A stretch of 64,000 bases of DNA, from assembly GCA_964587045.1 (NCBI GenBank), contig CAZPJY010000002.1, forward strand, positions 1-64,000, given 5' to 3'. The notes beneath the pieces are model-generated. The model saw only the letters and a list, made by a program, of their open reading frames with translations, ran no database searches and was not told the DNA's origin. Both the position numbers and the translations under genes were made by a program. Below are positions 9,352 through 56,468 of the stretch, piece by piece. Numbering within the stretch: position 1 is the first letter of the stretch; each line of letters begins with the position of its first letter. This stretch comes from an uncultured Methanosarcinales archaeon (GTDB taxonomy: Archaea > Nanobdellota > Nanobdellia > Woesearchaeales > CAZPJY01).

Positions 9352-9840
9352 ATGCGAAAAATTGCCAAGCTAATCCTTACCAGTGCACTTTCTCTATTCA
9401 TGGCAACACCCTTGGCAGCTGGTGATAAGGACCACAACTCGACTGTCAACGTCTGCATGGGAGTCTCCATCCAGGAGGGAAACCATGAGAACCATACCTT
9501 CACAGGAGGGGGCATCGCCCTTCGCCTTTGCAAGAGAAGCACTTACCTAGAGAGCAGGATCGACACCTTCAACGGAATCCTAGGAGACCATTCAATTTCA
9601 TCGATTGGCCTGAAATCCTACCTCTTCAGCGATGCCAGCCTGAATCCTTACGCAGGGGCCGGCGCTGAGTACAGGTTCTACCCGGTCGGCGATGGGGTGA
9701 TCAACCCGTATGTCAAGGGGGGTCTGAAGCTGTTCGACCTGGTTTATTTCGAGTACCAGCACAACATCGGGCAAGACAAGAACACTTACTATCCCAACTT
9801 TGATCTCGCAAGGGTTGGACTCGAGTTTAAAATCAGGTAA
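9352..9840 (+). CDS. Secreted protein resembling an 8-stranded outer-membrane beta-barrel (OmpA/OmpW-like)
   Basis: Sec signal peptide; LNPYAGAGAEYRF, NPYVKGGLK, VYFEYQH and terminal ARVGLEFKI amphipathic strands. Confidence 0.55.
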   Translation: MRKIAKLILTSALSLFMATPLAAGDKDHNSTVNVCMGVSIQEGNHENHTFTGGGIALRLCKRSTYLESRIDTFNGILGDHSISSIGLKSYLFSDASLNPYAGAGAEYRFYPVGDGVINPYVKGGLKLFDLVYFEYQHNIGQDKNTYYPNFDLARVGLEFKIR

Positions 9841-9872
9841 GGTTTAAATAGTATCCTGCACGTTGTAAAGCT

Positions 9873-11171
9873 ATGCTTCGTGGGAAAAAGGGGTCGTCTC
9901 AGGTCGATTGGGTCATAAGCCTGTCGCTCTTCTTGCTCTATCTCGCATGGTATTTCATCTTTCTCAAGCCGCAGCTGGAAGATAAGTATTCACTGGCTCC
10001 ACTGGCAGGCACGCTCGAAGACAGGGTGCATGACGAGCTCTACTGGAGCGTCGACAGAATACCATTGAGGCTCAGCACCAACGTGACAGGAGCTTATCAT
10101 ATTGTGGAATTAGACGTGCCATACAACTGGACACGGGACTACATACTGCTGCCTGAAGACCTTTATTTCCAGATAGAGGGCGGACGCATGCTGATGCTCG
10201 CCAACCTCACAGCCGGTGATGAGACGCTTTGGCTAATGCATTCTGACGAGCCGTACAACCATACAGGGATAGTCGAGGACATAATCGCTGAAGACAGCTA
10301 CGTATCCCTGGGCAGCGTCGAGATGAGGGTGGACTACGAAGATATGATGCCAAACAAGGTGGAATACAGGGACAGGCCGATGGTATACAGCATCGAATAC
10401 GCCCTCAACGGCTCCGGTCTGTCCATCCAATTCGAGAACTTCAGCATCACACCCATCTATGCTAAATACTGGGTGGCGACACCCCAGTTCAACCACACAT
10501 CACGGGTTTATGCGAGGAACTCAAAGGTGGTAAACGAGATAGCACTCAACGATGTTGACACGCCCTATTCCCTGTCATTTTCCCTTGAGCTTCAGGATTT
10601 CGATTACTACTTCGCCAACAACAGGGATTCCGGACTCATTAACTACACCAAGCAAGGATGCCGGACCTTCACATCGCCGTTCATGGATTTCTACGACAGC
10701 CTGGGCGGATTGGCATTCCTCTTCTCAAGCGATGCCGATTTCCGTTTCTGCTTCACCAATTCGTCAGACCTCAATCTGAACATCACCTGGCCGCTGGAGG
10801 AGGGCGGCCGGTATAACATCATCCCTCACGACGGCGACTACCTAGATGTCAGCCAGCAGTTCGCCGATGTGGCATACGAGTTCGGCCTGCTCGACGCTGA
10901 GGAAGGGCTGTCGCTCCAACTCATAGAGGATTTTTCCCAACGCGACTATGAAGACCTAAAAGACGACTGGAACATCCCTGGGGGCGTGCAGCTCGTCGTA
11001 TACAATTCGACGCTGAAGGCGTACCTGAGAGGCGAGGGCGACGTACTGCTAGACTACTCGCCCGAGACTCCCAAAGCCAACACGCAGGCCGAATCAGTGG
11101 AGAGGAACGCGTGGGTGATTGACAAGTACGGCAACCTGAGCATAGCATCATACAAGATAAGGGTGTGGTAG
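9873..11171 (+). CDS. Large pilin-like surface protein with class III signal peptide
   Basis: KKG/SSQVDW plus hydrophobic helix; many N-x-S/T sequons. Confidence 0.65.
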   Translation: MLRGKKGSSQVDWVISLSLFLLYLAWYFIFLKPQLEDKYSLAPLAGTLEDRVHDELYWSVDRIPLRLSTNVTGAYHIVELDVPYNWTRDYILLPEDLYFQIEGGRMLMLANLTAGDETLWLMHSDEPYNHTGIVEDIIAEDSYVSLGSVEMRVDYEDMMPNKVEYRDRPMVYSIEYALNGSGLSIQFENFSITPIYAKYWVATPQFNHTSRVYARNSKVVNEIALNDVDTPYSLSFSLELQDFDYYFANNRDSGLINYTKQGCRTFTSPFMDFYDSLGGLAFLFSSDADFRFCFTNSSDLNLNITWPLEEGGRYNIIPHDGDYLDVSQQFADVAYEFGLLDAEEGLSLQLIEDFSQRDYEDLKDDWNIPGGVQLVVYNSTLKAYLRGEGDVLLDYSPETPKANTQAESVERNAWVIDKYGNLSIASYKIRVW

Positions 11172-11570
11172 GTGGACAAGAGAGGATTCGTAAAAACGAT
11201 CGAGGTCATCTTCGCGATAGTGATAACCTTCATCTTTCTCGTCTATGTGGTCCCCGACAGGTTTATTTCAAGACCCAAGGAACAGACCTTCGATTACCTG
11301 GCCCCGCTCGAGATGAATCCGCAGTTCCGCGAGGAGGTTCTCAACCGCGCTGAGGGGTGCTACACCGATGACAACACCACCATGACCTTGTTGGTGGACG
11401 AGATGGTGCCGCAGGCTTTCAACTACACGCTCTGCGTCTCGGAAGACCCGTTCTACCTGGGAGAGGAGCTGCCTTCCGCAAAGGTCTCTGCCAACAGCTT
11501 CGTGATATCCAACAGCTCTGAGACCAGGGTGGTGAGGCTCTTCTACTGGGTCGAGCCCGGCCGCATATGA
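11172..11570 (+). CDS. Small pilin-like protein with class III signal peptide
   Basis: KRG/FVKTIE plus hydrophobic helix; abuts the previous gene. Confidence 0.65.
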   Translation: MDKRGFVKTIEVIFAIVITFIFLVYVVPDRFISRPKEQTFDYLAPLEMNPQFREEVLNRAEGCYTDDNTTMTLLVDEMVPQAFNYTLCVSEDPFYLGEELPSAKVSANSFVISNSSETRVVRLFYWVEPGRI

Positions 11571-11607
11571 CAAATTATTTATAGTCTGCAGGCGTCATCA
11601 GGCATGC

Positions 11608-11802
11608 ATGAAGATAACTATCGACACCAAGCATGATAGCGCAGACGAGATCCGCGAGGTCATCGAATTCCTGAAAAAGGTGGTTGGTTCCGGAGGGGAC
11701 GTCAGCGACGAGGGCGGCCAGGCGTTCGGCAGCATGTTCGGGAGCGATTCCCCCAGTAAGCCTCCGGAGGACGACGACATCCCCAAGATAGAACCTTATT
11801 AA
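11608..11802 (+). CDS. Small hypothetical protein
   Basis: 64 aa, upstream TTTATA, genome-typical codon usage. Confidence 0.65.
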   Translation: MKITIDTKHDSADEIREVIEFLKKVVGSGGDVSDEGGQAFGSMFGSDSPSKPPEDDDIPKIEPY

Positions 11803-11841
11803 GGAATACCTTTTTATACCGCCAAGGGCTCCTGCGCTACT

Positions 11842-12252
11842 ATGAGATTCAAGTTCGTGCAGGACCTGACGAGTGATGTGATGTTCGAGGCCTACGGGAA
11901 GGACGAAAAGGAGCTTTTCGAGAACTGCGCCATCGCGCTCGCGAGCGTCATATGCAAGATAGACCAGGTGCCTGCGGTTAAGCAGACCCAGATCAGAATC
12001 AAGGCGGATTCGCTGGAGGACCTGCTGATAGACTGGCTCCAGGCAATAATAGCCGCTGTCGACACCGAGATGCTGTTCTATTCCAAGTTCGAGATAAAAA
12101 AGATAACAGAGAACGAGCTAGAAGCGGTGGCCTACGGCTCGCCGGTCACCCCTGAGCTTGGCGAGACTGTAGTCAAGGCAGTCACGTACTACAAGTTCAG
12201 ACTGGAACACACGGGAAAGGTGTTCAAGGCTGTAGTAAGCCTTGACATATGA
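11842..12252 (+). CDS. Archease
   Basis: TSDV.FEAYG...ELFEN, EDLL.DWL, VKAVTYY, SLDI; adjacent to rtcB. Confidence 0.93.
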   Translation: MRFKFVQDLTSDVMFEAYGKDEKELFENCAIALASVICKIDQVPAVKQTQIRIKADSLEDLLIDWLQAIIAAVDTEMLFYSKFEIKKITENELEAVAYGSPVTPELGETVVKAVTYYKFRLEHTGKVFKAVVSLDI

Positions 12253-14870: not shown

Positions 14871-14910
14871 ACGCCGAAGGAAACCGGTTCTCTTTTTATA
14901 TCTTCTGTTG

Positions 14911-15868: not shown

Positions 15869-15872
15869 ACCC

Positions 15873-21556: not shown

Positions 21557-22018
21557 ATGATGGATTCTTTCATGCAGGCAGCATACGACGAAGCGAAATC
21601 CGGCATGGATGCCAGAGAAGGCGGCCCGTTCGGAGCTGTGGTTGTGAAGGATGGGGAGATAATCTCGCGCGCCCACAACGAGGTAGTCGCATCCAACGAT
21701 CCGACGGCTCATGCCGAAGTTCTAGCCATAAGAAGGGCTGCTCAGAGTCTGGGCAGGTTCAAATTGGACGATTGCGAGCTTTACACGACCTGCGAGCCCT
21801 GCCCGATGTGCGCAGCTGCACTGCATTGGGCGCGCATGCCAAAGGTTCATTTCGCCTGCACGGCGCAGGACGCTACAGATGCCGGCTTCGACGACAAGCT
21901 GATGTATGAGGAGTTCAGGGGCAGCAAGAAGTCCCCAGTGATCAAGGCCAATGAGGGTAGGGATGAATGCCTGCGCCTGTTCGACGAATGGAAGGCCAGG
22001 AAGCACACTCAGTACTAG
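21557..22018 (+). CDS. Nucleoside/guanine deaminase (GuaD-like)
   Basis: GGPFGAVVV, DPTAHAE, CEPCPMC, DAGFDD. Confidence 0.9.
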   Translation: MMDSFMQAAYDEAKSGMDAREGGPFGAVVVKDGEIISRAHNEVVASNDPTAHAEVLAIRRAAQSLGRFKLDDCELYTTCEPCPMCAAALHWARMPKVHFACTAQDATDAGFDDKLMYEEFRGSKKSPVIKANEGRDECLRLFDEWKARKHTQY

Positions 22019-23997
22019 AATATACTCGTATGCACCCATCTCAGGATGTCGTTGAAGAATATCAGAACATGCTGCCATGCCGTCGCATCATTCATCTCAA
22101 TCGTAAATTCGGTCTCTGTGCTATACGGTTTTCCGTTCTCATCCTCCCAGGACGCCTGCAGCTTGACGGCGTTTGGGCCCAAAGAGAGTGATTTTCCTTC
22201 CAGCCAGACGATGAACTCCCTGTCCATGTCAAGGGTGGAAAGGTCCCAATCAGTCGGCATCCCATCCAGCAGGAAAGTGACCATCATGTCCCTTCCAGGG
22301 GATTGGGCAAGCCTTTCGAGGGTGAAGTTCACGGCGAACCTTTCGCCGTAGCTCACAGAGGAAGGAGCGCTTATCTCAGCGAAGCCGAATGAGGGCAATT
22401 CCATCACATCATATGTTAGCTGATACCTCCTCTCCAGTTCCGCATTGGTCGCATTTGCGACTGCGATGCCGATTCCAGCAGAGTCTAGATGGAGCTTGAA
22501 GCCCACCTCTGCGGTCTCGGTTATACCAAGGTCGATTACCTTGCACTCTTCCAGGCAGACCTTGAGGTTCTTGATGAACGTGTTTCCCTGGTTTTCGACA
22601 GTGCACGTCACCGCAGGCTGTTCGTAGACATAGTAGCTGTCCTTGTCCAGCTCGCACTCGAATGACAGGCCGGTCGAGAGGGCAGGTGGCTTCTCGTCTG
22701 GCACGAGCTGGTCCATGTCCCTTTCGCTGTAGGTCCTGGTGTAGCTGTCTGCCCTGAACTCTGCTGTGGCTGCCTGCTCGTTGTCCACATAGGCTGCGAG
22801 AGGCATGGTGTAGATCCCGTTCCTGTCGAGGCCATCCGGCACCCTCACCACCCATGCGATCTCCCTGGTCCCGCTGGGCCCCACAAGGACGAGCTGCCTG
22901 TTCTCTCCCCCGATTTCGATCTCCCTGGGCTTGGAGAGGTACAGGTCGACTGCCAGGTAGTGATCCCTTTGGTTGGTAAGGCTAACTGTCACGAGGTTGT
23001 AAGAGCCGAACCCCACCCTATCCTTAAACACTCTCAGCTCTGCGGAGACAGGGGCCCGGAGGTAGGGTCCTGTCTCGACCACCTGGGTATCGATGTCAAG
23101 GCTGGAAGTGCTGATGTCGTAATCATACCCCCTCCACTCGTACTTCGTGGAGGAGCTTGTGGAATCTGTGCTCTCACCCAGCTTTATGTGCGTGGCATCG
23201 ACGTACCCAACCTGGCCGTAGGTGACATCGAAAGGCACCCAGCCGACTCCTGGGAAGTATACCTCAGCCCAGCCGTGAGGCCCCCAGTTCTCCTCGAACT
23301 GCTCGGAGTTGGTGTAGGAGACGCCGGACACAAACTTCGCGGGTATCCCGAGTGACCTGGCCAGGGCGATGAAGAGGTTGGTGATCTCATCGCAGACCCC
23401 GTAGCGGTTGGCCAGCACCCAGCTGGCCTTCTGCGATGCTGATGCTGTCAGAGTGCTCAGCGAGTAGTTGACGTTGTGCTTGGTCCAGTCAGCGAGCTCA
23501 AACACCACCTCGAAGAGGTCGTCCTCTCCCTCTGCCAGCTGTGACGCTTGCTCTATGATGTCCCTGTCGCCTGAATCAATCCTCTCTGAGGGCTTTGTAT
23601 AAGGCTTCACTTCAGGAGGGAGGGCGGACCCTATGGGAAAGGCTATTCTTTCCTTTACAGGCTTGTACCTGTTGTGAGTCTTCAGGGTGGCTTCGACGTC
23701 GAAGCCGAACCTGCTCTTGGCCGGTTTGTCCCACCTGAACAGGAGTCCGTCGTCTGTCGGCAATGGGCTTGGCTGAGCCTGGAAGACCATGACTTCCTGA
23801 TCATCGCTGTCCCTTGGGTAGAAGGCGAGATCGGCTGTCACGTAGTCGAGGTACGCGTCAGTGCCGCTTGGGATGGTGGTTATGTCTGCGCCTATCTTGA
23901 GGTTCAGGATCAGCCATTCGCTGTTGAAGAGATCATTTGCCGAGACCGTTGGCAGGATGAGCAGTAATACTAGGACAATCCACCTCTTTTCCGGCAT
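22015..23997 (-). CDS. Secreted transglutaminase-like domain protein
   Basis: Signal peptide; GVCDE, ARSLGIPA, HGWAEVY...GWVPFDVT triad; Ig-like C-terminus. Confidence 0.88.
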   Translation of the reverse strand: MPEKRWIVLVLLLILPTVSANDLFNSEWLILNLKIGADITTIPSGTDAYLDYVTADLAFYPRDSDDQEVMVFQAQPSPLPTDDGLLFRWDKPAKSRFGFDVEATLKTHNRYKPVKERIAFPIGSALPPEVKPYTKPSERIDSGDRDIIEQASQLAEGEDDLFEVVFELADWTKHNVNYSLSTLTASASQKASWVLANRYGVCDEITNLFIALARSLGIPAKFVSGVSYTNSEQFEENWGPHGWAEVYFPGVGWVPFDVTYGQVGYVDATHIKLGESTDSTSSSTKYEWRGYDYDISTSSLDIDTQVVETGPYLRAPVSAELRVFKDRVGFGSYNLVTVSLTNQRDHYLAVDLYLSKPREIEIGGENRQLVLVGPSGTREIAWVVRVPDGLDRNGIYTMPLAAYVDNEQAATAEFRADSYTRTYSERDMDQLVPDEKPPALSTGLSFECELDKDSYYVYEQPAVTCTVENQGNTFIKNLKVCLEECKVIDLGITETAEVGFKLHLDSAGIGIAVANATNAELERRYQLTYDVMELPSFGFAEISAPSSVSYGERFAVNFTLERLAQSPGRDMMVTFLLDGMPTDWDLSTLDMDREFIVWLEGKSLSLGPNAVKLQASWEDENGKPYSTETEFTIEMNDATAWQHVLIFFNDILRWVHTSIF

Positions 23998-31175: not shown

Positions 31176-33125
31176 TCAGCGTCCCGGGTCGTACACGACT
31201 CCGGGCACTATGCTTACCTCATCCAGCCCTATGTCCCTTGAGATGATAACCGTAGGCTTTTTGTAGTCTCCCTTGTAGTCGCCGATCTTGACCATGGTCC
31301 TAGCGAGGGCCGTGTACATCTCGTCGACTGGGTTGTTCGATAACCTTTTGGTCTTCCTGAACGCCTTTTCCCTGTAATCATCCCAGGCCTGGTAGTCTAC
31401 GACGTATATCTCCTCGCCGTTGTGGGGGTTGACCTCGATGAGCCTGTTCTTGTAGCTGCCGAACTCGCTGTCCATGTGATGCCCCTCGATTGGGTAGTCC
31501 TCGGCCGCGCTGTTCGGTTTTGGCTTTCCAATCCCGCACCAGATGAATCCGTTGTACGCCTCCTTTGGGAATTCTCCCTCGGTTCCCCAGCTGCACAACC
31601 GCCACCCAGGGACTATCGCCGCCCTCTCATCGACCAATACCTTGCTCGGATCGCCTCCGGTGAGCACGACCTTTGCGGCCTTCTTTTCGCTGATCCAAGT
31701 ATAAAGGGGGCCTATCTCCTTTGGGTATGGGACGGCGTCCGGTTTGTTGGTCTCTTGCTCCTTTGCGACAGGTGTTGCGAGTATTTTCTCAAGCACGTTC
31801 TCCTCAAGCCAGCCGGCGATTCTCTTGCTCTCTTCTTCCCAGCTCTTGTCGGGCTTGGGGTCGGGGCGATCTATGCCCCAATGTTTCCTCTTCCTGTACA
31901 TCTGGTCCCTGTAGCTGTCGCCCTCGTACCCGCGGCCCATCGCATCCACCCTGCTGTTGGTGTAGTCATTGCCCTTCTCCTTGATGAATATACCTGAGTC
32001 GTCGTCGTAGAGGGTCAGTTCAAGCTGCAGAGGCTTAATTATGATTCTATAAGGCATCCCTGTTTCGTTGTACTTATCAAGATACGCCCTGCCTGACTTG
32101 CGGCAGTTGTATATCTGGAATTTGCTGGTCTCTATGTAGCGAATCATCGTGAACACGCCCTTGCCTGTCTCATCCATGCTCACCCTGACCTTCCCAAGCC
32201 CTTCGATCCCAATCTCTTCCTCTGCGCCCTCCTGCGTGAACCTGTAGGCGTCCAGCCTCCTGGGCAGGCGCTTCGATATCTCAGTGCTGATCCTGTCGCA
32301 CACCTCATCGACGTGCTCGAACCTCCTGCTTTCCCCGAGCCTGATGCCGCCCAGGGCTTCCTCGTGGATTATCACATGTTGAGGATAACGCTTAGAGAAG
32401 ATCTTTTCCAGGTCGCTTAAGGCAACCTGCGGCAGGGTTTTTCCTTGCTTCCACCTTATCTTGTCTCTCTTGTCCTGCTCTGCGGAGATGAGCATGTCAG
32501 ACAGGAAGCCTCCGACATCCAGGCTGTTGTTCCTCCTCGCCCTATGCTTCTCCTGCTCGAACTCGGAGTCAGAGAGTTCTGTGAGCGCTGATGAGTACAC
32601 ATGAGGGTCCGGGATTTCTCCTCTGCTGATCATGTCATATTTTATCTGGTGTTCCTCGAGGGCATTCTCCTTCTGAGCCTCCTGCTTGATTCCTTCAAGG
32701 AAGATCTCGAGAATCTTCATCTCCCCTGGGGAGCGGTTGGTGAAATAGAGCTTTTGCATGAGAGCGGCACCGCGCATGTGGTCGTCTCTGAACCTGATTC
32801 CTCCCAACTCCTTGGTCAGGTAGAACAGCTCCTTTACCCTGATTCCGGGGTTGAGGTCGACTGCCTTGAGCCCGTAAAGAATGGCTTCCTCCCCCTTCGA
32901 TGTTAAGGCGTATTCCAAGTAGATGTCAGCTAGGCCGCGGAGCATCCTACCTCCGGTCTCACTCAGTCCTTTTGGGAAAAACCCGGAACTGTAGGCGGCT
33001 AGCGCAAAGGCAGTGTTGTTGATTGTCCCTTTCTCCAACACCTTGATGTACCTGCCCAGGACATCCCTCACACTCTCGATTGGTACTGAGCCTTCCGGGT
33101 CCGTCTGATCTTCTAATGAAGACAT
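31176..33125 (-). CDS. Large hypothetical protein (649 aa)
   Basis: Long ORF, upstream TTTTATAT; no family recognised. Confidence 0.75.
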   Translation of the reverse strand: MSSLEDQTDPEGSVPIESVRDVLGRYIKVLEKGTINNTAFALAAYSSGFFPKGLSETGGRMLRGLADIYLEYALTSKGEEAILYGLKAVDLNPGIRVKELFYLTKELGGIRFRDDHMRGAALMQKLYFTNRSPGEMKILEIFLEGIKQEAQKENALEEHQIKYDMISRGEIPDPHVYSSALTELSDSEFEQEKHRARRNNSLDVGGFLSDMLISAEQDKRDKIRWKQGKTLPQVALSDLEKIFSKRYPQHVIIHEEALGGIRLGESRRFEHVDEVCDRISTEISKRLPRRLDAYRFTQEGAEEEIGIEGLGKVRVSMDETGKGVFTMIRYIETSKFQIYNCRKSGRAYLDKYNETGMPYRIIIKPLQLELTLYDDDSGIFIKEKGNDYTNSRVDAMGRGYEGDSYRDQMYRKRKHWGIDRPDPKPDKSWEEESKRIAGWLEENVLEKILATPVAKEQETNKPDAVPYPKEIGPLYTWISEKKAAKVVLTGGDPSKVLVDERAAIVPGWRLCSWGTEGEFPKEAYNGFIWCGIGKPKPNSAAEDYPIEGHHMDSEFGSYKNRLIEVNPHNGEEIYVVDYQAWDDYREKAFRKTKRLSNNPVDEMYTALARTMVKIGDYKGDYKKPTVIISRDIGLDEVSIVPGVVYDPGR

Positions 33126-37392: not shown

Positions 37393-38055
37393 TTATACGT
37401 TTCGGTGGAGGGCCGCGTCGATCAGTCCAAGGAGCGTGTCAGAGTCGCTGCTGTGGTACATTATCTCGCCCTGCCCGTCCACAAGCCGCCAGTCCTTGCT
37501 CTCTATCCGGAGCTTGTTCCCCTTGTAGTGCGGGAAGTACTCCTCGTACAGCTGGTTGAGGTCTGCTAGGTAGGTGTCGCCGTCAGCCAGAAGGCCCCGT
37601 TCGCCCTCCCTCACGCGTCCTTCCCGGTTCAGGCGGTTGCGGATGCGCGCCTTGAGATCATCCACTTCGGTGAAAGGGTAGATTACCAGGTCGGGCTCTG
37701 GAATCTTGAGCTTCATCGCGTCGTACTGGTGGGTGATGGTCATCTTCTCAGCCCTTGACAAGAAGCCGTCCCTGTAGTTCTTCTCTGTGAAGATGTGGAT
37801 ATCTTCTGCCATCAGCCTGTCGGTCACAGCCGAGAGAGGAGAGATGGTCATGTGCCACCAGTTTCGGAACCTGCTTGACAGGAAGAATATCTGGGTGTTG
37901 TAAGCGTGCTCCTTTCGGTCGTTGTAGTAGAAGTTCAGGACGAGCTCGTTGACCTCCTCGGGGTAGAACTCGAAGTTCCAGCGCTTCTGGATCAGCTTGC
38001 AAAGCGTGGTCTTGCCTGCTGAGATGTTTCCCATCACGCCGATTATCCGTTTCAT
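37393..38055 (-). CDS. Deoxynucleoside kinase
   Basis: GNISAGKTT, FY.D..., Q.FFL..R, DR...ED, PDLVIY, RI..R.R..E. Confidence 0.9.
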   Translation of the reverse strand: MKRIIGVMGNISAGKTTLCKLIQKRWNFEFYPEEVNELVLNFYYNDRKEHAYNTQIFFLSSRFRNWWHMTISPLSAVTDRLMAEDIHIFTEKNYRDGFLSRAEKMTITHQYDAMKLKIPEPDLVIYPFTEVDDLKARIRNRLNREGRVREGERGLLADGDTYLADLNQLYEEYFPHYKGNKLRIESKDWRLVDGQGEIMYHSSDSDTLLGLIDAALHRNV

Positions 38056-38795
38056 CTGAACAGCCGCTCCATGTCAGGTATCAGCTTCACCATCTCTTCG
38101 ACGACGAACTCAAGACCCTCATCGGTGCGTATGTCATAGGTCTGGGTGTCGATTACGATCTTTGGGAACTCGCACTCCACGATCCAGGGCCTGTAAAGGT
38201 TATCCAGCTCTTTTAGGTAGGTATTCTCGGGCTTGGCGAGCTCGAATTCCTCGACGCGCTCGCGCTCCAGTATCCTCCTCTTAAGGGTCGGCACGTCGCT
38301 TTCCATGTAGATGATGAGATCGGGTTTGGGCTTGCTCTCCATGTGCAGCTTGAAGAAATAGTTGTACCTCTCCAGGTCCGCCTGCGATATGTAGCCGTGG
38401 TTCCTTGAGTTCTGGGTGAAGAGCTGGTCCTCGTAGATGCTCCTGTCCTGGACCACTGACGCCTCTCCTTTCCTAAGCATCTTATCGATCACCGTTAGGT
38501 CGAGCAGCCTGGTGAAGAAATAGGCCTCCTGCAGCGTGAAGCCCCAGTACTCAGCCTCCTGCTTGGCCTTCTGGAAGGCCTCGAAGTTGGTCTTCTCAAG
38601 CTTTTCCGCCTTAACCTTCTCGTACTCGATGACCGCGTCATAGTACTCCTCCAGGTAGCGGTGCTTCTTTACGTAGTCCACCTGCTCGAGGAAGGCGACG
38701 AGGTTCCCGTCGGTGTGCTCCTCAAGCCTCCTGGCGAGCGTGGTCTTGCCCGCGCCGATGTTGCCTGCCACAGATATGAAATAGTTCTTCATCAT
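38052..38795 (-). CDS. Deoxynucleoside kinase
   Basis: GNIGAGKTT, QDRSIYED, KPDLIIY, RILERER..E, YL..L...Y. Confidence 0.9.
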   Translation of the reverse strand: MMKNYFISVAGNIGAGKTTLARRLEEHTDGNLVAFLEQVDYVKKHRYLEEYYDAVIEYEKVKAEKLEKTNFEAFQKAKQEAEYWGFTLQEAYFFTRLLDLTVIDKMLRKGEASVVQDRSIYEDQLFTQNSRNHGYISQADLERYNYFFKLHMESKPKPDLIIYMESDVPTLKRRILERERVEEFELAKPENTYLKELDNLYRPWIVECEFPKIVIDTQTYDIRTDEGLEFVVEEMVKLIPDMERLFR

Positions 38796-38886
38796 GACCC
38801 CCCGAACAAGATGCTGATTTGGCACAGCTTATTAATATGTGTATCGCGATAGATTTAAATAGAGACTTTCGTTCCATTGACGCTAC

Positions 38887-41008: not shown

Positions 41009-41368
41009 TTATGACCAATGCTCCTGTAACTTTCCTACAATATCGCAGAGCTTCTCACCGGTGTCGAAGTCCAACTTGTCCTGCTTTACGAGCTCCTCCA
41101 GCCTAAACAGCACGCCAGCTGCGTTGATGTATGAATTCTTGTGTCTCTCGATATCCTTTTGGTTCCGCTGCTCGTCCACCTGCTCTGAGATTCCGGCTTC
41201 GATGTAAGATAACCTAAGCTCAATTTGCTTATAGAGGGTTCTCTTCTCCATCTCAACATATTCGAGAAAATCAAGGAAAGGCATCTGCTGGACTTCCCCA
41301 TCAAGTTTTAAGTACTCCGACCTGATGCTTTCTACTGCCTCATGAAGGTAGTATTCGCTCGCTTTCAT
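41009..41368 (-). CDS. Helical hypothetical protein (119 aa) coupled to the LysM gene
   Basis: ATG 41368 (MKASEYYLHEAV) overlaps the upstream stop as ATGA. Confidence 0.6.
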   Translation of the reverse strand: MKASEYYLHEAVESIRSEYLKLDGEVQQMPFLDFLEYVEMEKRTLYKQIELRLSYIEAGISEQVDEQRNQKDIERHKNSYINAAGVLFRLEELVKQDKLDFDTGEKLCDIVGKLQEHWS

Positions 41369-42453
41369 AGGTTCAGCCACACCTTTGCCGAATGGATGGG
41401 ATTGTTGCTCGCGCTCCTTCCCCACTGGTTGGCCTCGTGCCCGTACTCGTAGCCCACTCCGAACTTGCCAAGGTCGGCTCCGATGCCGTAGGTCAGCTTG
41501 AGCATCTCGAAGTCCTTGCCTGCGAAGAACCACTCGCCGAAGCCCACCAGCTTCCAGGGCAGCTTGACCCAGTAGTCCATCTCCCACCTGTCGGGCCCGT
41601 TGTCGTCCTCCTTCCCGCTCACCCAGTAGTAGTTGAACTTCTGGCCGCCTGTTATGCGTATCTTAACCTCATCGTGGCTTACCCCTCCTGAGAAGCCTGC
41701 GGTCCCGAAGCCGTCCAGCGACAGGCTGTTGTCCCGAAAGGATGTGTTCATCGCACCGACGCTCCCTGTGAGGTCAAGATAAAATATGCCTGAGCTGAGC
41801 AGGTTGCGGAACAGCCTGAACTCGCTCCTAGCGACAGCGTTCCTGCCGTGCCTGAACTTGAAGGCCGTCCCAGAGTGTTCCTTGGCCAGGCCCTGCTGGT
41901 ACTTCTTGCCGAACGTGCCCTGCAGGATCAGTTCGGGCATCTTGTGGTCGGGCCCTTCGATCTTGGGGTTGTAAATCAAAGAGAATGTCAGCTTGTCGAT
42001 GGACACGCCTTCCTTCCTGTTATGGTAGGCGTACCACTTGTTCACCTCATTTGCGTGGTCCAGCGCGTAGGGCAAGTTGTTGATCGCCACGATGATACGC
42101 CTCTGGTTTCGGATCACCTCGTCGAACTTGCCGTCGATGCTCTTCAGGAACGGCGCTGGGAACTTCGCTTCCGGCCTTTCCTGTTTTATCTTCTTTTCGA
42201 TGACGCTCGGGAACGGAACGTTGATCGTCTGTCCCTCCTTGATCAGGTGCGGGTCCTCGATGTCAGGATTGTACTCCTTGTAGATGTACTCCCAGTGCAT
42301 CGGGTTGCCGTCGTTTTTCTCTGCAATCTGTGACAGCGTATCCCCCTCCCTTACCTTGTACTTGTAACAGTCCTGTTGCTGCGCCTGGGCCCCGAACGTC
42401 AGCCCGAGGACTCCCAGCCCCACCAGTCCGTATTTTGTGATCCTGTTCATCAT
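41365..42453 (-). CDS. Secreted LysM protein with predicted C-terminal beta-barrel
   Basis: Signal AQA/QQQ; LysM YKVREGDTLSQIA...NPDIEDPHLIKEGQTINVP; series of amphipathic Gly/aromatic strands; SD GAGGTGA. Confidence 0.75.
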   Translation of the reverse strand: MMNRITKYGLVGLGVLGLTFGAQAQQQDCYKYKVREGDTLSQIAEKNDGNPMHWEYIYKEYNPDIEDPHLIKEGQTINVPFPSVIEKKIKQERPEAKFPAPFLKSIDGKFDEVIRNQRRIIVAINNLPYALDHANEVNKWYAYHNRKEGVSIDKLTFSLIYNPKIEGPDHKMPELILQGTFGKKYQQGLAKEHSGTAFKFRHGRNAVARSEFRLFRNLLSSGIFYLDLTGSVGAMNTSFRDNSLSLDGFGTAGFSGGVSHDEVKIRITGGQKFNYYWVSGKEDDNGPDRWEMDYWVKLPWKLVGFGEWFFAGKDFEMLKLTYGIGADLGKFGVGYEYGHEANQWGRSASNNPIHSAKVWLNL

Positions 42454-42531
42454 GATTCACCTCGACGATCGGCTGGAAAACCTGTTATATTTAAGTATAT
42501 GTTTTTAAAGGGAAGAGGCCTTCCACCACTC

Positions 42532-43176
42532 ATGAGACTGCTGGGCATCGACGAGGCAGGGAGGGGGCCGGTCATCGGTCCGCTAGCCATCGCAGGGGTT
42601 GTCGTCGAGGATGAGGCGCCCCTGATCAGGTTGGGCGTCAAGGACTCAAAGCAGCTAACTCCGGAGGAGAGGGAAAAGCTCTTCGACAAGATAATCAAAA
42701 GCAGCATTGACCATTCCATAGCGCTTGTGGTGCCTGAGGAGATAGACGCGTTCCTCAGCTGGTCGAATCTCAACAGGCTCGAGGCGCACACGATGGCTAA
42801 GGTGATAGCGGAGCTGAAGCCTGACAGCATCATCCTCGACCTTCCCGGGAGGGACCCTTCCAAGTACCTCAACTACATGAGGGAGAAGGTATCCCTGCCG
42901 ACGAGCGTGACAGCTGAGAACAAGGCAGACGAGCGCTACCCTGTTGTGAGCGCCGCCTCAATCCTTGCCAAGGTGGCGCGCGACCGCGAGATAGAGAAGC
43001 TGAAAAGTCGGTTCGGCGTGGAGTTCGGAAGCGGCTACCCAGCAGACCCCATGACCAAGGCCTTCCTAAAAGAGAGGTGGGACGACCCCAAGCTTCGGTC
43101 CCTGTTCAGGACCAGCTGGGAGCCGTGGAAGGAGCTCAAGCGCAGCTCGTCCCAGTCCAGCCTCGACTCATGGTAA
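42532..43176 (+). CDS. rnhB: Ribonuclease HII
   Basis: GIDEAGRGPVIGP, DSKQL, KAD..YPVVSAASILAKV.RD, GSGYP.DP.T; PIP-like QSSLDSW. Confidence 0.95.
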   Translation: MRLLGIDEAGRGPVIGPLAIAGVVVEDEAPLIRLGVKDSKQLTPEEREKLFDKIIKSSIDHSIALVVPEEIDAFLSWSNLNRLEAHTMAKVIAELKPDSIILDLPGRDPSKYLNYMREKVSLPTSVTAENKADERYPVVSAASILAKVARDREIEKLKSRFGVEFGSGYPADPMTKAFLKERWDDPKLRSLFRTSWEPWKELKRSSSQSSLDSW

Positions 43177-43210
43177 TGTTTTTATATCAGATGAATAGAG
43201 CTTGATTCCC

Positions 43211-44044
43211 ATGACTTCATACAAGGACGTGTCGGAAAAGGATCTGAGACCCCTGCTAAGCCAGGGATTCTACCTCGATGAGGCCAAGACCCCGCAGGAG
43301 GTCATACGCCTGAAAGGGCCAGCGACCCTGATACTCTACCAGAACGGGAGGCTGCTGGTCCAGGGGAACCCAGTGCTGCTCAAGGCTGTGGAGGGCCAGC
43401 TCGAGGAGCTGGGGCTTGAGCCTGCCGAAAAAGAATCTGCGGAGAAGAGGTACATGGACAAGAAAGGGATCATCATAGGAAGCGACGAATCCCTGAAGGG
43501 AGACACTTTCGGCGGGCTCGTTGTTGCCGCGGTCAAGTGCGACGACAACACCAGGCTTGAGCTGATGCAGAACGGTGTGACCGACTCAAAGCGAATCGCC
43601 GACGAGCGGATTCCCGACCTGGCAAGGATAATCAAGAAGAGGTGCAGGTACCATATCCGGGACCTGCCTCCTGAAGAGTACAACAAGCACAACATGACCA
43701 TCCTCCTCAACAGGCTTCACAGCGAATGCGTAAACGCCCTGCTGCCCGCTGACAAGATAGTCATAGACAAGTACCCAGGATGCGACCTGCCTGCTACCCT
43801 GTTGCCCAGGGCGGAGCTGGAGTACGTCGAAGTGGCCGCAGCATCCATACTCGCAAGGGAAGCAGCCATAGCCCAGTTCGAGCGGATGTCCGAGGAGCTC
43901 GGGTTCGAAGTGCCCAAGGGCAGCTCCCACGTCGAAGACGCGCTCAGGAGGCTTATCGAGAAGAGGGCCCCCTTCAACAGGTTCGTGAAGATGCATTTCA
44001 TGAACGTGAAGGAGGCCATACGGCGCTACGGAGAGGAAGCATAA
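43211..44044 (+). CDS. rnhC: Ribonuclease HIII
   Basis: N-terminal TBP-like (ILYQNGRLLVQG); IGSDESLKGDTFGGLVV, DSK, AE...VAAASILAR, PKG, KMHF. Confidence 0.82.
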   Translation: MTSYKDVSEKDLRPLLSQGFYLDEAKTPQEVIRLKGPATLILYQNGRLLVQGNPVLLKAVEGQLEELGLEPAEKESAEKRYMDKKGIIIGSDESLKGDTFGGLVVAAVKCDDNTRLELMQNGVTDSKRIADERIPDLARIIKKRCRYHIRDLPPEEYNKHNMTILLNRLHSECVNALLPADKIVIDKYPGCDLPATLLPRAELEYVEVAAASILAREAAIAQFERMSEELGFEVPKGSSHVEDALRRLIEKRAPFNRFVKMHFMNVKEAIRRYGEEA

Positions 44045-50846: not shown

Positions 50847-51118
50847 TCATCTGCGCTCGTTNNNNNNNNNNGCTCTAGCTTCTTGAGGAAAACCTCTTCT
50901 AGATTTATCTTGTGTATCCAGCAGAGCTTGTTCAGCTGCCAGAGTATATCGGCAACCTCACCCTCAAAATCCTCCCTCTTCTGCTTCTCCCGGACTGCCT
51001 CGCACACCTCGCCGACTTCCTCGACCAGGTGCAGCAGTACTTCTGTGCCGTCCTTCGGCAGGCATCCCTTCTTTTCCATCTGTTGCATCTGCCTTTCGCC
51101 TAACTCATGCAGGTCCAT
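50847..51118 (-). CDS. MazG-like NTP pyrophosphohydrolase (spans the N gap)
   Basis: LVEEVGEV.E, E.EVAD; after the gap reads NERR-stop, so the 143-aa ORF-track product is an artefact. Confidence 0.85.
50862..50871. other. Scaffold gap (10 N)
   Basis: Run of N. Confidence 1.
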
Positions 51119-51123
51119 TTAGT

Positions 51124-52439: not shown

Positions 52440-52441
52440 AA

Positions 52442-52606: not shown

Positions 52607-52614
52607 TGCTTGCA

Positions 52615-52686
52615 TGCGGCGGCCGGGATTCGAACCCGGATAGGCGGCTTGGAAGGCCGCAATCATAGCCATTAGATCACCGCCGC
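52615..52686 (-). tRNA. tRNA-Gly(TCC)
   Basis: GCGGCGG/CCGCCGC, GCGGC-CTTCCAA-GCCGC, CCGGG-TTCGAAT-CCCGG. Confidence 0.94.
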
Positions 52687-52763
52687 GGGCGGTTGAGAAG
52701 AACCGTCGTCACTTTATATAATTTTGCACAATCTTTTTAAACACGCCTAGATTCTTTTTGGGT

Positions 52764-54131
52764 ATGGTCCTTGACAAGCTAGGCAGCTCCCTGAAGGGGA
52801 CACTGCAAAAGATTGCGAAGTCGATGTTCGTAGATGAAAAGCTCATCAACGAGCTGGTGAAGGACATCCAGCGTGCGCTGCTGCAAAGCGACGTCAACGT
52901 CAAGCTGGTGTTCGACCTCTCAAAGCAGATCAAGGAGCGTGCTCTCAAGGAGGAGACGCCTCCCGGGCTCTCGAAGAAGGAGCACCTGATAAACATAGTC
53001 TACGAGTCTCTCGTCACCTTCCTGGGAGGGGAGGGCCTCAGGCTCGATTTCAAGAAGAAGCCGGTCGTCCTGATGCTCGTCGGCCTGTTCGGCAACGGCA
53101 AGACCACAACTGCCGGAAAGCTCGCCCACTATTACCAAAAGAGAGGCCGCAAGGTGGCCATGGTCCAGACCGACACTTGGCGTCCGGCAGCCTACACACA
53201 GCTCAAGACCTTGGGTGGTCAAATCAAGGTCCCGGTGTATGGAGACCCCAAAGGCAAGGACCCGGTTAAGATTTGGAAGGATTTTGCCCCGCAGAAGGGC
53301 AAGTTCGACCTGATCATCGTTGACACCGCGGGACGCGATGCTCTCTCTAACGACCTCATCAAGGAGCTCAACGGAATCAACGAGGCTGTCAGGGCAGACA
53401 CCCGCCTGCTGGTGATTGGAGCCGACGTCGGCCAGGCAGCGGAGAAGCAGGCCCGAGCCTTCCACGACACCTGCGGCGTCACCGGAGTGATCATCACGAA
53501 GCTCGACGGCACAGCCAAGGGTGGAGGGGCCCTCATAGCTTGCGCGGTGACAGAGGCGCCTGTGATTTTCGTGGGTGTTGGAGAAAAGATTGACGCTTTC
53601 GAGGAGTTCCGGCCCAAGGGTTTCGTTGGCCGTCTTCTGGGCATGGGCGACCTTGAAGCGCTGCTGGACAAGGCCAGGGAGGCCATCAGCGAAGAGGACG
53701 CAAAAGACATCAGCAAGAAGCTCCTGAAGGGTGACTTTAACCTAATAGACCTCTATGAACAGATGCAGGCCGTGCGCAAGATGGGTCCACTTTCTAAGGT
53801 GATGGAGATGGTTCCTGGCATGGGGCAGCTGAACATCCCAAAGGAGATGCTCAACGTGCAGGAAGGGAAGCTTGAGAAGTGGAAGCACATCATGGGCTCC
53901 ATGTCAAAGGAGGAGCTTGAGGACCCGGACATCATGTCTGTTTCACGCATCGATCGGGTGGCGAAGGGCTCAGGCATAGGTGCTTCGGAGGTAAGGGACC
54001 TGCTCAAGCAGTACAAGCAGTCCAAGAAGCTTATGAAGATGCTCAAGGGCGGCTCCCCCAAGTCTATGGAGAAGATGATGAAGCGCATGGGCGGAAAGGT
54101 CCCGGGAATGGGCAATGTCAGGATCAGGTGA
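52764..54131 (+). CDS. srp54: Signal recognition particle protein SRP54
   Basis: ALL.SDVN, GLFGNGKTTT, DTWRPAA, DTAGR, TKLDGTAKGGGAL, Met-rich M domain. Confidence 0.96.
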   Translation: MVLDKLGSSLKGTLQKIAKSMFVDEKLINELVKDIQRALLQSDVNVKLVFDLSKQIKERALKEETPPGLSKKEHLINIVYESLVTFLGGEGLRLDFKKKPVVLMLVGLFGNGKTTTAGKLAHYYQKRGRKVAMVQTDTWRPAAYTQLKTLGGQIKVPVYGDPKGKDPVKIWKDFAPQKGKFDLIIVDTAGRDALSNDLIKELNGINEAVRADTRLLVIGADVGQAAEKQARAFHDTCGVTGVIITKLDGTAKGGGALIACAVTEAPVIFVGVGEKIDAFEEFRPKGFVGRLLGMGDLEALLDKAREAISEEDAKDISKKLLKGDFNLIDLYEQMQAVRKMGPLSKVMEMVPGMGQLNIPKEMLNVQEGKLEKWKHIMGSMSKEELEDPDIMSVSRIDRVAKGSGIGASEVRDLLKQYKQSKKLMKMLKGGSPKSMEKMMKRMGGKVPGMGNVRIR

Positions 54132-54603
54132 GCTTCGAGTTAAGGATTTTCCTCAGCTTCTGGTATGCAGGTTGATTTTCAGGAAATAAGTAGTCGGTTA
54201 TCGATTCGATGATCCCATTCCTCTTAATGAGGTCATAGTACCCGTAGCCGATCTGCCTTGCTACGTTTTGGTGCCAACTGGCTGCGAGCGCCTGGTTGAC
54301 TTCATCTTCGTATCTGGGGTTGGTAATGCCGTTCACTTCTTTTGGGGTCTCGCATTTGATGTAATTCAACTGCTGCGTTAGGTCGATTATCTCCGCCAGC
54401 TTCAGTCGGAGCAGGCGGTCATACGATTTCATCAGCATCTTCACGCAGAACCCGTAAGCCTTCCTGACCCCATTTGGCCTGATGTCCTCATAGCCTTCCA
54501 CGAGATCAGCCAGCTTCCGGTAGGGCGTGTCGAATATGCCGAGCCTTTGCTTCTTCTCCAGAATCCGCGCTTCCAGAGTCTCGACGTACTCATCCTTATC
54601 CAT
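54124..54603 (-). CDS. Hypothetical protein (third gene of the transglycosylase operon)
   Basis: SD GGAGG; overlaps the upstream gene end. Confidence 0.6.
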   Translation of the reverse strand: MDKDEYVETLEARILEKKQRLGIFDTPYRKLADLVEGYEDIRPNGVRKAYGFCVKMLMKSYDRLLRLKLAEIIDLTQQLNYIKCETPKEVNGITNPRYEDEVNQALAASWHQNVARQIGYGYYDLIKRNGIIESITDYLFPENQPAYQKLRKILNSKLT

Positions 54604-55159
54604 TGGCATCCTCCAAGACGTCATCAAATGCGTGGTACAGCACAAACAGACCTGCTGAATTGATAGTGAGGTACTCGGAGGTAAGGGTGCTGGTCCTGCC
54701 GAACACCCTGTAAGTGGAAAAAAGGCGAAGCTCTGGATTTGGGCTCTCCTTGAGGTCTTGTACCCTGATGTCGTTTAGGAACTGCTTCTTCTCACGGCTG
54801 AAGTCGATACTGTAGAATTTCTTTCTGAGCTTCCCCAATGACAGCCTGTCAACCAGGAAACGGATTGAACCGTTGTCGTAGTGATCAAGGAACTTCTCAA
54901 GATGCTTTTTGCCGGTATCAATGATGTAATTTTTTGAAAGTGCTGGATCCAGGCACAGGTCACACTCCGGGCCCTGGTAATCGAATTCCTTTTCTGGGTG
55001 GTCGAGCATCGCCTGCCTCTGGGCTGAGAACCTGATTTTCTCTTCCCACGACAGGTCGAAATCCCGCGACCGCTCAGTGAGGGCGCTGATTATCTTGTCT
55101 TGGTTTTCGTGTAGGAACCTGCTGACGTGTTGGCAGTATAAGCTATTGGTTTTTTCCAT
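54596..55159 (-). CDS. Hypothetical protein (second gene of the transglycosylase operon)
   Basis: SD AGGTGA; overlaps the transglycosylase 3' end; one CxxC. Confidence 0.6.
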   Translation of the reverse strand: MEKTNSLYCQHVSRFLHENQDKIISALTERSRDFDLSWEEKIRFSAQRQAMLDHPEKEFDYQGPECDLCLDPALSKNYIIDTGKKHLEKFLDHYDNGSIRFLVDRLSLGKLRKKFYSIDFSREKKQFLNDIRVQDLKESPNPELRLFSTYRVFGRTSTLTSEYLTINSAGLFVLYHAFDDVLEDANG

Positions 55160-56468
55160 GATCTCTCACCTTCAGTTTTGCTCCTTCCAGGATTTTATGG
55201 TTTTTGAGTCCGTTCCATGCCATGATGTCAGATATGGATGTTCCGTACATGCGTGACAGGCGTCCAAGGGTCTCACCCTTCTTCACTATGTGGTGCTCCC
55301 CGGTATTTTCGGCCACGTTGATTTCGTAGAATTCCTTCGGGTCCATGAAAAGTTTGGGGTCCATCTTCACTGGCAGGCTCTCTTCTTGAGGCCCTCCGAA
55401 CAGGAAGGACATGGCATAGACCTTCCCGACGTATCTCTGTGTTTGCTCGAGGAACAGGTCTTTCATGACCCAGTAGTTGTTGGTCCGCATCTTCCTCCTG
55501 ACATCGTCGACGGTCTTCCTTCCGCAGTTGTACGCTGCGAGCGCAAGTGGGAAGGCCATTTGTTCTGGGTACTGCTCGTTTGAGAGCTCCTTTCTGTAGT
55601 ATTCGAAGTTGTCTAGGAGATGTTTTGTTCCAGCTTTGACGTTGCCTTTCAATTTCAATACGTTCTCTCCGTAGAGCTCGCCGGTCTCCTTGAGGACCTG
55701 CAGAAAACCGTAGGCTTTCGCCTTCGATTTGATGACTTTTCCGTCCTTGGTGTGGTAACCTTGGCTCTCGACTACCGCAAGCCCCTTTACCAGGGCCAGG
55801 TCAAGGTCGAGGTCATCGCACATGTCTTTTAGGATATCATTGTGCTGTTCGACCCTGTCAACGATTTCTTCATAAGTCCTGACCTCGAATATGGTGTTCA
55901 AGGCCTTGTAGTACTCAGCATATATGGTGTTCTCGACACCTTGTGTGTATTGGTCTGACGTCCAGATCAGCTTATCGATTCCGACCGCTTCGATCTTTTC
56001 GAATACCTCTTTGTTCGGGAAGAGGGTTTGCCTCTGTGCGATGTAGGCCTTGTTGATGGTTTCGGTCTTGGCAGCTATATCAGATATGGTCAGGGCGGTG
56101 TAGACAGCTGCGGGCAGTAGAATCGCGGAAGCTGCGTAGGCTGTTCTGTACATCCCCCGGACTGCGCCGCCCTTGTTGGTGTCGTAATCGTCGTAGGATG
56201 CTGAGAGCCTGTCAATCTTCTGCCTGTTCCTGCTCACGATGTTGGTTGCGCCTTTCGCTGCCAGCCCGGTGAGTCCTCCCAACACGATGTATGCTATGCC
56301 CAGAGCGCTCGGATTGCTCTGCATGGTGACCGTGTCGGTCATCTTGTGCGCCCCTATCACCCCTCCTATCACCGGGATGGATATCGCTGATGCGTAGAGG
56401 GCTGCTTTGAACCAGTTGGTCTTCCTGCCGATTCTCCTTTTCCTGATCTCTTCTTCTGTCTTGCGCAT
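55143..56468 (-). CDS. Membrane-anchored GH23 lytic transglycosylase with C-terminal LysM (MltD-like)
   Basis: 3 N-terminal TM; LAVVES (catalytic Glu), AYGFLQ, ALAAYNCG, QTQRYVGKV; LysM HIVKKGETL..LS..YG.SISDIMAWNGL. Confidence 0.88.
   Translation of the reverse strand: MRKTEEEIRKRRIGRKTNWFKAALYASAISIPVIGGVIGAHKMTDTVTMQSNPSALGIAYIVLGGLTGLAAKGATNIVSRNRQKIDRLSASYDDYDTNKGGAVRGMYRTAYAASAILLPAAVYTALTISDIAAKTETINKAYIAQRQTLFPNKEVFEKIEAVGIDKLIWTSDQYTQGVENTIYAEYYKALNTIFEVRTYEEIVDRVEQHNDILKDMCDDLDLDLALVKGLAVVESQGYHTKDGKVIKSKAKAYGFLQVLKETGELYGENVLKLKGNVKAGTKHLLDNFEYYRKELSNEQYPEQMAFPLALAAYNCGRKTVDDVRRKMRTNNYWVMKDLFLEQTQRYVGKVYAMSFLFGGPQEESLPVKMDPKLFMDPKEFYEINVAENTGEHHIVKKGETLGRLSRMYGTSISDIMAWNGLKNHKILEGAKLKVRDHGKNQ

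Follow-up and report, generated by a model that had tools for sequence, protein, structure and literature searches.

The window analysed here is the whole stretch of 64,000 nucleotides (nt), C2:1-64000, that opens contig C2 of the genome of a Woesearchaeote (contigs of this source genome are written with C and a number). Three of its genes, at 9352, 41365 and 55143, were the subject of an earlier note made from the sequence alone, referred to here as the original prediction. They encode proteins of 162, 362 and 441 amino acids (aa), which are designated below by their lengths. The genome (1.6 Mb in 50 contigs) has quality ratings of 100% completeness and 0.53% contamination. The three open reading frames (ORFs) and the parts recognized in them are the following.

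9352..9840, plus strand: exported orphan of 162 aa with a Sec-type signal peptide (..PLAA, followed by GD), a candidate eight-strand barrel resembling outer-membrane proteins (OMPs) (ORF, ESM Atlas and rank tests)
41365..42453, minus strand: Sec-exported LysM protein of 362 aa with a signal peptide (..GAQA, followed by QQ), LysM at aa 32-80 and then about 270 aa of orphan, beta-rich sequence (Pfam, AlphaFold2)
42214..42360, minus strand: LysM domain of the 362-aa protein (Pfam)
55143..56468, minus strand: MltD-like lytic transglycosylase of 441 aa, membrane-anchored, with three transmembrane (TM) segments, SLT and LysM (Pfam, alignment, hydropathy)
56085..56405, minus strand: N-terminal anchor of the 441-aa protein, three hydrophobic segments at aa 22-38, 55-71 and 112-128 (Kyte-Doolittle 17-mers of 1.78-1.89 and charge distribution)
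55470..55805, minus strand: SLT (GH23) catalytic domain with E234-S235, S..A.G..Q and AAYN.G (Pfam, six-frame search, alignment)
55167..55292, minus strand: C-terminal LysM domain of the 441-aa protein (Pfam)

The 441-aa protein matched SLT (PF01464) at aa 222-333 with E 5.7e-8 (32.8 bits against a Pfam cut-off of 21.3), in agreement with a six-frame search, and LysM at aa 393-434 with E 1.1e-12 (48.2 bits, cut-off 20.9). In an alignment that also contained the second SLT protein of the genome (see below) and MltD-like proteins from four bacteria, the Glu-Ser pair (E234-S235 of the protein, E35-S36 of the aligned fragment) and the motifs S..A.G..Q and AAYN.G were invariant in all six sequences. 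Because the stretches rich in lysine and arginine, the N-terminal tail (nine residues) and the loop 74-106 (six residues), lie around the three hydrophobic segments, hydropathy topology predicts that the SLT-LysM part is outside the cell. The lytic transglycosylase of TM-GH23-LysM type that had been proposed for this locus is thus borne out by the anchor, by both domains above their cut-offs and by intact catalytic motifs, its activity being a predicted one.

A homolog search with the 441-aa protein returned 64 relatives besides the protein itself, every one of them combining SLT with LysM, at 21-49% identity in local alignments that covered 8-56% of the query; the few named ones were bacterial MltD-like proteins. 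MltD (family 1D, GH23) is a lipoprotein in which SLT is followed by C-terminal LysM. The 441-aa protein shares this order of domains, keeps the Glu-Ser pair and AAYN.G, and has as its best relatives proteins named MltD or LysM peptidoglycan-binding proteins. It differs in being archaeal, in having one LysM and an anchor of three TM helices where MltD has a lipid, and in an identity of 21-31% over the domain-spanning alignments. Two of its properties weigh against a closer equation with MltD: the score with the NCBIfam MltD equivalog model NF008050 was 38 bits, far below the cut-off of 508, and the N-terminus, with its three TM segments, has no lipobox, the anchor not being that of a lipoprotein. 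The protein probably works like MltD, yet it is no MltD equivalog.

Searching the whole genome for murein hydrolases revealed a larger set than had been noted before, in total two SLT, three LysM and two Peptidase_M23 proteins. The second SLT protein (C40:3935-4492(+), 185 aa, E 6.8e-25) is TM-anchored and its gene adjoins a proteasome-ATPase-like gene; the third LysM protein (C6:23073-23516(+), 147 aa) is also anchored. The Peptidase_M23 genes, C1:79481-80524(+) (E 1e-25) and C26:657-2609(-) (E 1.6e-11), belong to a family of murein cross-link endopeptidases and enlarge the wall-targeting set. No Mur ligase (Mur_ligase_M), SEDS, penicillin-binding protein transpeptidase or secretin was detected in searches of the source genome, and none of its proteins matched NlpC/P60. 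Since the genome has no murein-synthesis genes, the archaeon is predicted to make no murein, and the substrate of the enzymes must, on this gene content, be foreign.

The distribution of these domains was determined in a sample of 301 genomes of the same order, 222 of which are of high quality. SLT was present in 176 genomes (58%; 131 of the 222 high-quality ones) and LysM in 72 (24%). The sample includes the unpublished genomes G273 and G209; without both, the SLT count is 174 of 299, and without G273 the LysM count is 71 of 300.

In the 362-aa protein the LysM at aa 32-80 was recognized with E 2.2e-6 (28 bits against the Pfam cut-off of 20.9). The rest of the protein (aa 95-362) had no Pfam match at E<=10 and none in NCBIfam or PHROGs, and a word-indexed homolog search with the full sequence returned the protein itself only. 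Other LysM proteins of the order share LysM alone with it, their remaining parts being SLT or NlpC/P60-like (by eye). AlphaFold2, run on the single sequence, gave a mean predicted local distance difference test (pLDDT) value of 36.3, with 55-70 for LysM and less than 50 for aa 95-362 (268 aa). With its N-terminal signal peptide, a LysM in the same position and a beta-rich region thereafter, the protein resembles TsaP, the LysM protein of the type IV pilus secretin, and the TsaP chains 6ve2_O and 3jc8_Ta were its best PDB sequence matches (E 0.005), with the LysM portion only; unlike in the TsaP system, there is no secretin in the source genome. The architecture of intimin/invasin is LysM followed by a beta-barrel, and here, too, the signal peptide, LysM and beta-rich region of the 362-aa protein are in the same order. 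No relation of its C-terminus to TsaP or to intimin/invasin was found.

Beta-barrels had been proposed at two of the loci: an OmpA/OmpW-like small barrel for the 162-aa protein and a LysM-linker-barrel arrangement for the 362-aa protein. Sequence searches of these candidates in PDB, Pfam, NCBIfam and PHROGs gave nothing beyond LysM and SLT. In the ESM Atlas feature search the 162-aa protein scored 0.97, with 173 shared features and a recognition value of 2571; the matches were bacterial proteins of 152-167 aa, and the only named sets among the 30 matches were PagL, DUF481 and OMP_b-brl, all of them outer-membrane barrels. Home-made control tests were built from annotated E. coli K-12 genes, 12 barrels serving as positives along with 66 non-barrels. 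Composition log-odds fully separated the E. coli controls (0.045-0.147 for the positives, at most 0.009 for the negatives), and the two candidates scored 0.024 and 0.050. In the rank test, in which the barrels among the top 10 phmmer matches of a query in a 397-protein set were counted, 9 of the 12 true barrels reached at least 3 (self excluded). None of 15 E. coli secreted non-barrels reached at least 2, and none of 40 composition-matched archaeal secreted proteins reached at least 3, three of them reaching 2. The 162-aa protein had three E. coli barrels in its top 10, a level reached by 0 of the 55 negatives, with OmpW as the best match (E 0.095). Its threshold-free area under the curve (AUC) was 0.819, near the median of the positives, against 0.795 for the best of the 55 negatives. 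A crude measure of alternating hydrophobicity, the beta-moment test, gave z values of 1.4-1.5 for the candidates. Dyad-strand coverage was rejected as a barrel test: helical membrane proteins scored highest in it, so it did not discriminate.

Other observations weigh against a barrel at 9352. The 162-aa protein had no match to any Pfam family at E<=10, OMP families included, and none in NCBIfam or PHROGs; a search of the entire source genome with OMP_b-brl (PF13505) was negative at E<=10. Its single-sequence AlphaFold2 model had a mean pLDDT of 33.0 and was unusable. The rank tests are home-made, with all 12 positives from E. coli, and the AUC margin over the best negative is small. Nor is the composition specific in the proteome of the archaeon, where the 162-aa protein held rank 25 of 1615 and the LysM protein, by its best window, rank 18. 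The 162-aa protein ends in ..EFKIR, whereas each of the 11 control barrels of E. coli that have their native C-terminus ends in F or W, and it has two Cys.

The proteins above the candidates in the composition ranking were mostly large secreted surface proteins. Clusters of secreted proteins are encoded on C20, C18, C12, C35, C13 and C1; some of these proteins are giant, up to about 8,500 aa, and, being rich in G, N, Y and D like bacterial outer-membrane proteins, the clusters dominate the top of the ranking.

Among known proteins, the 162-aa protein most resembles the small eight-strand bacterial outer-membrane barrels (OmpW, OmpX, PagL, the OMP_b-brl clan), a likeness from which we infer its fold and role. 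In common with them it has a signal peptide, a mature size of about 139 aa, roughly eight dyad-patterned stretches (by eye) and OmpW as its best weak match; it departs from them in the missing profile match, the ..KIR end, the two Cys and a genome without the beta-barrel assembly machinery (BAM). We consider a membrane-type barrel slightly favoured for this protein. The OmpA/OmpW-like barrel of the original prediction was nevertheless not upheld as such, as neither an OMP family nor a fold was obtained, the support from the Atlas and the rank tests being indirect. For the C-terminus of the 362-aa protein the results were less favourable to a barrel. The best Atlas score was 0.88, a lead only; there were 0-1 barrels among its top 10 phmmer matches; its AUC of 0.711 was equalled or exceeded by 10 of the 55 negatives; and the protein ends in ..KVWLNL, with no terminal aromatic residue. 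The best weak matches were archaeal surface proteins, from the ordinary members of which this region was not separable in the control-calibrated tests. A membrane-type barrel is therefore unlikely for these approximately 270 aa, and a soluble surface domain is more likely. LysM (28 bits) and Sec export are what stands of the arrangement proposed for 41365; its barrel, with no family, failed rank tests and no AlphaFold2 fold, does not. Structure prediction, suggested earlier as a check, thus yielded no fold for either barrel candidate.

Whole-genome searches for other barrel-type genes identified a TolC-family gene, C14:4595-5875(-), whose product of 426 aa has a signal peptide (..ARA, followed by QE, by eye) and two OEP repeats (PF02321, E 5.6e-19). 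The gene is on a 46-kb contig next to same-strand genes for proteins of 328 and 302 aa without a family, and among its neighbours neither a pump nor an adaptor was recognized. The signal peptide, the two OEP repeats and a weak similarity to CusC of E. coli (E 1e-5) are features of TolC and other outer-membrane factors; unlike these, the protein had no PDB sequence match. OEP occurred in 9 of the 301 genomes of the order (5 of the 222 high-quality ones), several matches being on contigs of about 2 kb. Five of the nine OEP-positive genomes were also SLT-positive, as compared with 176 of 301 overall, which is no enrichment. The same contig encodes a CNNM+CBS protein of CorC/TlyC type (C14:14789-15787(-)), which we take to belong to the same family as the tlyC-type K03699 and to be likelier a divalent-cation transporter.

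An unrecognised second membrane had been offered earlier as an alternative to life on bacteria. A search for Omp85/BamA gave no match in the source genome and none in the 301 genomes of the order, while the same search was positive in 7 of 14 control genomes; the source genome also has no OmpA C-terminal domain. Because Omp85/BamA was found in none of the 301 genomes, and murein-synthesis genes and secretin are absent from the source genome, a second membrane is disfavoured on the gene content. To judge from these searches, the genome has at least one clear gene of the outer-membrane type, besides a candidate, in a BAM-less lineage, which is no evidence for a bacterial-type outer membrane.

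The features around the three genes that bear on their origin and expression are listed below.

9242..9314, plus strand: tRNA-Val(CAC), directly 5' of the 162-aa gene (ARAGORN)
9319..9326, plus strand: TATA-like box TTTATATA, located some 26-30 nt upstream of the ATG at 9352 (by eye)
9873..11171, plus strand: 432-aa protein with a pilin-like (class III-like) N-terminus (by eye), a conserved Woesearchaeal family outside the toolkit (order search, relatives)
11172..11570, plus strand: pilin-like partner of the 432-aa gene, 132 aa, with a homolog adjacent in 9 of 14 relatives' loci
50862..50871: scaffold gap of 10 N, separating the third locus from the first and second, with archaeal genes on either side
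54124..54645, minus strand: ORF of 173 aa without a family, overlapping the 187-aa ORF (Pfam, NCBIfam, PHROGs)
54596..55159, minus strand: ORF of 187 aa without a family, with a 17-nt overlap with the stop of the SLT-LysM gene (Pfam, NCBIfam, PHROGs)

From the position of its TATA-like box, the 162-aa gene may have a leaderless or short-leader mRNA. The downstream 432-aa family, found in 66 of the 301 genomes, has no Pfam family; its N-terminal ..G, followed by SSQVDW.. and a hydrophobic stretch, is kept in the relatives. No gene similar to the 162-aa gene was present in any of the relatives' 14 loci around the pilin-like pair, and for this reason the 162-aa gene is regarded as a lineage-specific insertion, with its own TATA-like box, between tRNA-Val and the conserved pilin-like block. 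A word-indexed homolog search with the 162-aa protein returned only the protein itself, no match was found in 40 genomes of the same order, and phmmer against 1.84 billion representatives gave the protein itself and one spurious repeat match. The latter, a 1403-aa cadherin/Ig-repeat protein (E 2e-7), was rejected as a homolog, its E-value being summed over four weak matches of repeats, with an identity of about 29%. At the third locus, the 187-aa and 173-aa ORFs are on the same strand as the SLT-LysM gene and are possibly co-transcribed with it.

All three genes are native to the archaeon. The gene content of the window is archaeal (Orc1/Cdc6, RtcB, archease, Nre, ATP-dependent DNA ligase, XPD, SRP54, SMC and five tRNAs), and archaeal genes or a tRNA flank each locus on both sides at a distance of about 40-400 nt. 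Among species genomes, those with the SRP54 most similar to that of the window (59-80% identity) bear the titles Woesearchaeota, Nanoarchaeota or Nanoarchaeia. In GC content, GC content at third codon positions (GC3) and codon fit, all toolkit genes were within the range of the 1580 genes of the genome, the codon-fit percentiles being 32nd for the 162-aa gene (GC3 0.644), 97th for the LysM gene and 64th for the SLT-LysM gene. By eye, the 162-aa gene and the SLT-LysM gene each have a TATA-like box 26-30 nt before the start, and TATA-like boxes with a GAGGTGA motif were seen upstream of the 362-aa gene. The archaeal surroundings and the TATA and Shine-Dalgarno signals described in the original prediction were thus found again, as housekeeping genes, tRNAs, TATA-like boxes and the GAGGTGA motif. 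Because of the archaeal neighbours, the in-range codon fit, GC and GC3, the archaeal-style promoters and the low contamination rating, bacterial contamination is very unlikely, and we give hardly any weight to the view that the loci are contaminants or a chimeric assembly. Such a view could point to the scaffold gap and to three public DNA sequencing runs, labelled salt marsh metagenome, that hold parts of the window: their short, low-depth contigs neither cover 9340-9891 nor bridge the gene borders, and RNA runs holding parts of the window did not come up. Against it there is also the absence of Omp85 from all 301 genomes, which implies that carry-over from diderms is rare in bins of this order.

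Many public records of metagenome-assembled genomes whose SRP54 is 64-73% identical to that of the source Woesearchaeote are titled "uncultured Methanosarcinales archaeon", which looks like automatic mislabelling. Some other genes of the window were noted in passing. Two adjacent RNase HII-family genes are at 42376-43176(+) (E 2.2e-45) and 43202-44044(+) (E 2.5e-20), the second with an N-terminal extension of about 90 aa. Two tandem deoxynucleoside kinase (dNK) genes at 37393-38825(-) (E 4.8e-26 and 9.2e-32) fit nucleoside scavenging. A 660-aa protein (22015-23997(-)), which has a hydrophobic segment at its N-terminus as well as a transglutaminase-core domain (E 9.9e-26), is another likely surface enzyme, and the ORFs 31176-33125(-) (649 aa) and 4070-5071(-) (333 aa) have no Pfam family at E<=1e-5.

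Our preferred reading, to which we assign a probability of roughly 0.55, is that these genes belong to a native Woesearchaeal surface kit aimed at bacterial peptidoglycan, a polymer that would be absent from the archaeon itself. The 441-aa protein, anchored in the archaeal membrane by its three helices, would display SLT (GH23) and its one LysM outside the cell. LysM would hold the glycan strand while Glu234 cleaves the bond between N-acetylmuramic acid and N-acetylglucosamine (MurNAc-GlcNAc). It would act with the second anchored SLT protein, the two M23 endopeptidases and the small anchored LysM protein. The target may be a bacterium in contact with the archaeon, either host or prey, or wall debris; the murein substrate and the contact-dependent use are what we infer. 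The 362-aa protein could serve as a Sec-exported LysM adaptor with an orphan beta-rich C-terminal domain, and the 162-aa protein may be a lineage-specific exported orphan resembling eight-strand bacterial barrels. The original prediction envisaged a cell that attaches to, perforates and docks on diderm bacteria. Of this, the binding and cutting of murein is consistent with SLT, LysM, M23 and the predicted lack of own murein, perforation and docking by means of barrels are left without a barrel fold, and no feature found here separates a diderm from a monoderm host.

The substrate itself can be read in another way. GH23 includes chitinases. LysM binds chitin too (PMC12352652). Because both LysM and GH23 can act on chitin, murein is the likely, not the proven, substrate, a point that counts against our reading. 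The LysM and GH23 proteins might instead target other polymers of GlcNAc, such as chitin or an archaeal glycan, for feeding or for remodelling of the archaeon's own surface, with no bacterial interaction, and the salt marsh label of the public runs would be compatible with this. We regard it as improbable: in its SLT motifs the enzyme conforms to family-1 lytic transglycosylases, with MltD-like proteins as its nearest relatives, the two M23 peptidases would cut peptide cross-links, which chitin lacks, and the part of the proteome that was scanned contained no domain specific for chitin.

As to the barrel candidates, both the 162-aa protein and the C-terminal part of the 362-aa protein may be ordinary soluble beta-rich surface domains whose likeness to barrels is compositional, or the 162-aa ORF may be non-functional. 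This is somewhat unlikely for the pair, although an OMP-like composition is common among the secreted proteins of the archaeon (ranks 25 and 18 of 1615), neither candidate has a family match or an AlphaFold2 fold, the LysM-protein C-terminus weakly matches archaeal surface proteins best, and among 1.84 billion representatives the 162-aa protein has no relative apart from the spurious repeat match. What speaks for more than composition is that the 162-aa protein outscored all 55 negatives, including the 40 composition-matched archaeal secreted proteins, and that its Atlas score was 0.97 with a recognition value of 2571; a functional gene is indicated by its GC3 (0.644), a codon fit in the gene range, the TATA-like box and the signal peptide. 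The archaeon might, on the other hand, export outer-membrane proteins (the 162-aa barrel, the TolC-like duct and perhaps the LysM-protein C-terminus), to be inserted either into an attached diderm partner or into the archaeon's own outer layer, as a conduit beside the wall-cutting enzymes. The Atlas result, in which PagL, DUF481 and OMP_b-brl were the only named sets, and the rank tests, which put the 162-aa protein among true barrels, would agree with such export, as would the bacterial-style AxA signal peptides on the 162-aa, 362-aa and TolC-like proteins (by eye) and the TolC-like gene itself, with both OEP repeats at E 5.6e-19 on a 46-kb contig. It is made quite doubtful by the lack of Omp85/BamA in the sampled genomes of the order (0 of 301, with 7 of 14 controls positive), by a genome without secretin and OmpA C-terminal domain, and by barrel candidates for which no barrel fold was obtained and neither of which has a terminal aromatic residue. 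In addition, few genomes of the order have OEP (9 of 301), several of the matches being on contigs of about 2 kb, the LysM-protein C-terminus failed the rank tests, and according to a bioRxiv abstract two membranes are known in Ignicoccus alone. In its boldest form, a BAM-less archaeon would insert two bacterial-type proteins, an eight-strand barrel and a duct like TolC, into the outer membrane of a diderm attached to it or into an unrecognised outer layer that it has itself, where they would form, with the murein-cutting enzymes, a cross-domain conduit for feeding or docking; this we consider a long shot.

Wall-targeting enzymes have been described in this group. Castelle 2021 (PMC8204110) reports fam00969, murein-like lytic transglycosylases of Woesearchaeota and Pacearchaeota, for which attachment to bacterial walls was proposed. 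In Vigneron 2022 (PMC9723730) a "vampiristic" lifestyle of Woesearchaeota was proposed from GH23 and a tlyC-type gene, K03699, the latter being called a "pore-forming toxin". Peptidoglycan hydrolases are widespread in archaea according to Strock 2025 (PMC12352652). The 441-aa protein agrees with the published transglycosylases (PMC8204110, PMC9723730) in lineage, catalytic domain, extracellular site and proposed use against bacterial walls. It differs from fam00969 as that family is described (PMC8204110): the members of the family are large, up to 3,000 aa, whereas the protein reported here has 441 aa, a 3-TM anchor and one LysM. Since SLT and LysM are common in the order and the bacterial-wall reading has been published (PMC8204110, PMC9723730), the murein-directed part is real yet already known for the group; added to it here are the small, 3-TM-anchored form and the order-wide count. 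Among the papers listed in literature searches, none dealt with OMP-type barrels or TolC in DPANN archaea, which is weak evidence of absence.

The core of the set is thus of a known type, and the 162-aa orphan with the TolC-like gene is its intriguing part. The confirmed part is a further example of a published pattern, in which murein-less Woesearchaeota, members of DPANN, carry bacterial wall-cutting enzymes. If the 162-aa orphan is a true barrel of the outer-membrane type, the question would arise how and where a BAM-less cell uses a barrel and a TolC-like protein, and such a barrel would allow a direct approach to the question of a life on bacteria for some DPANN archaea.

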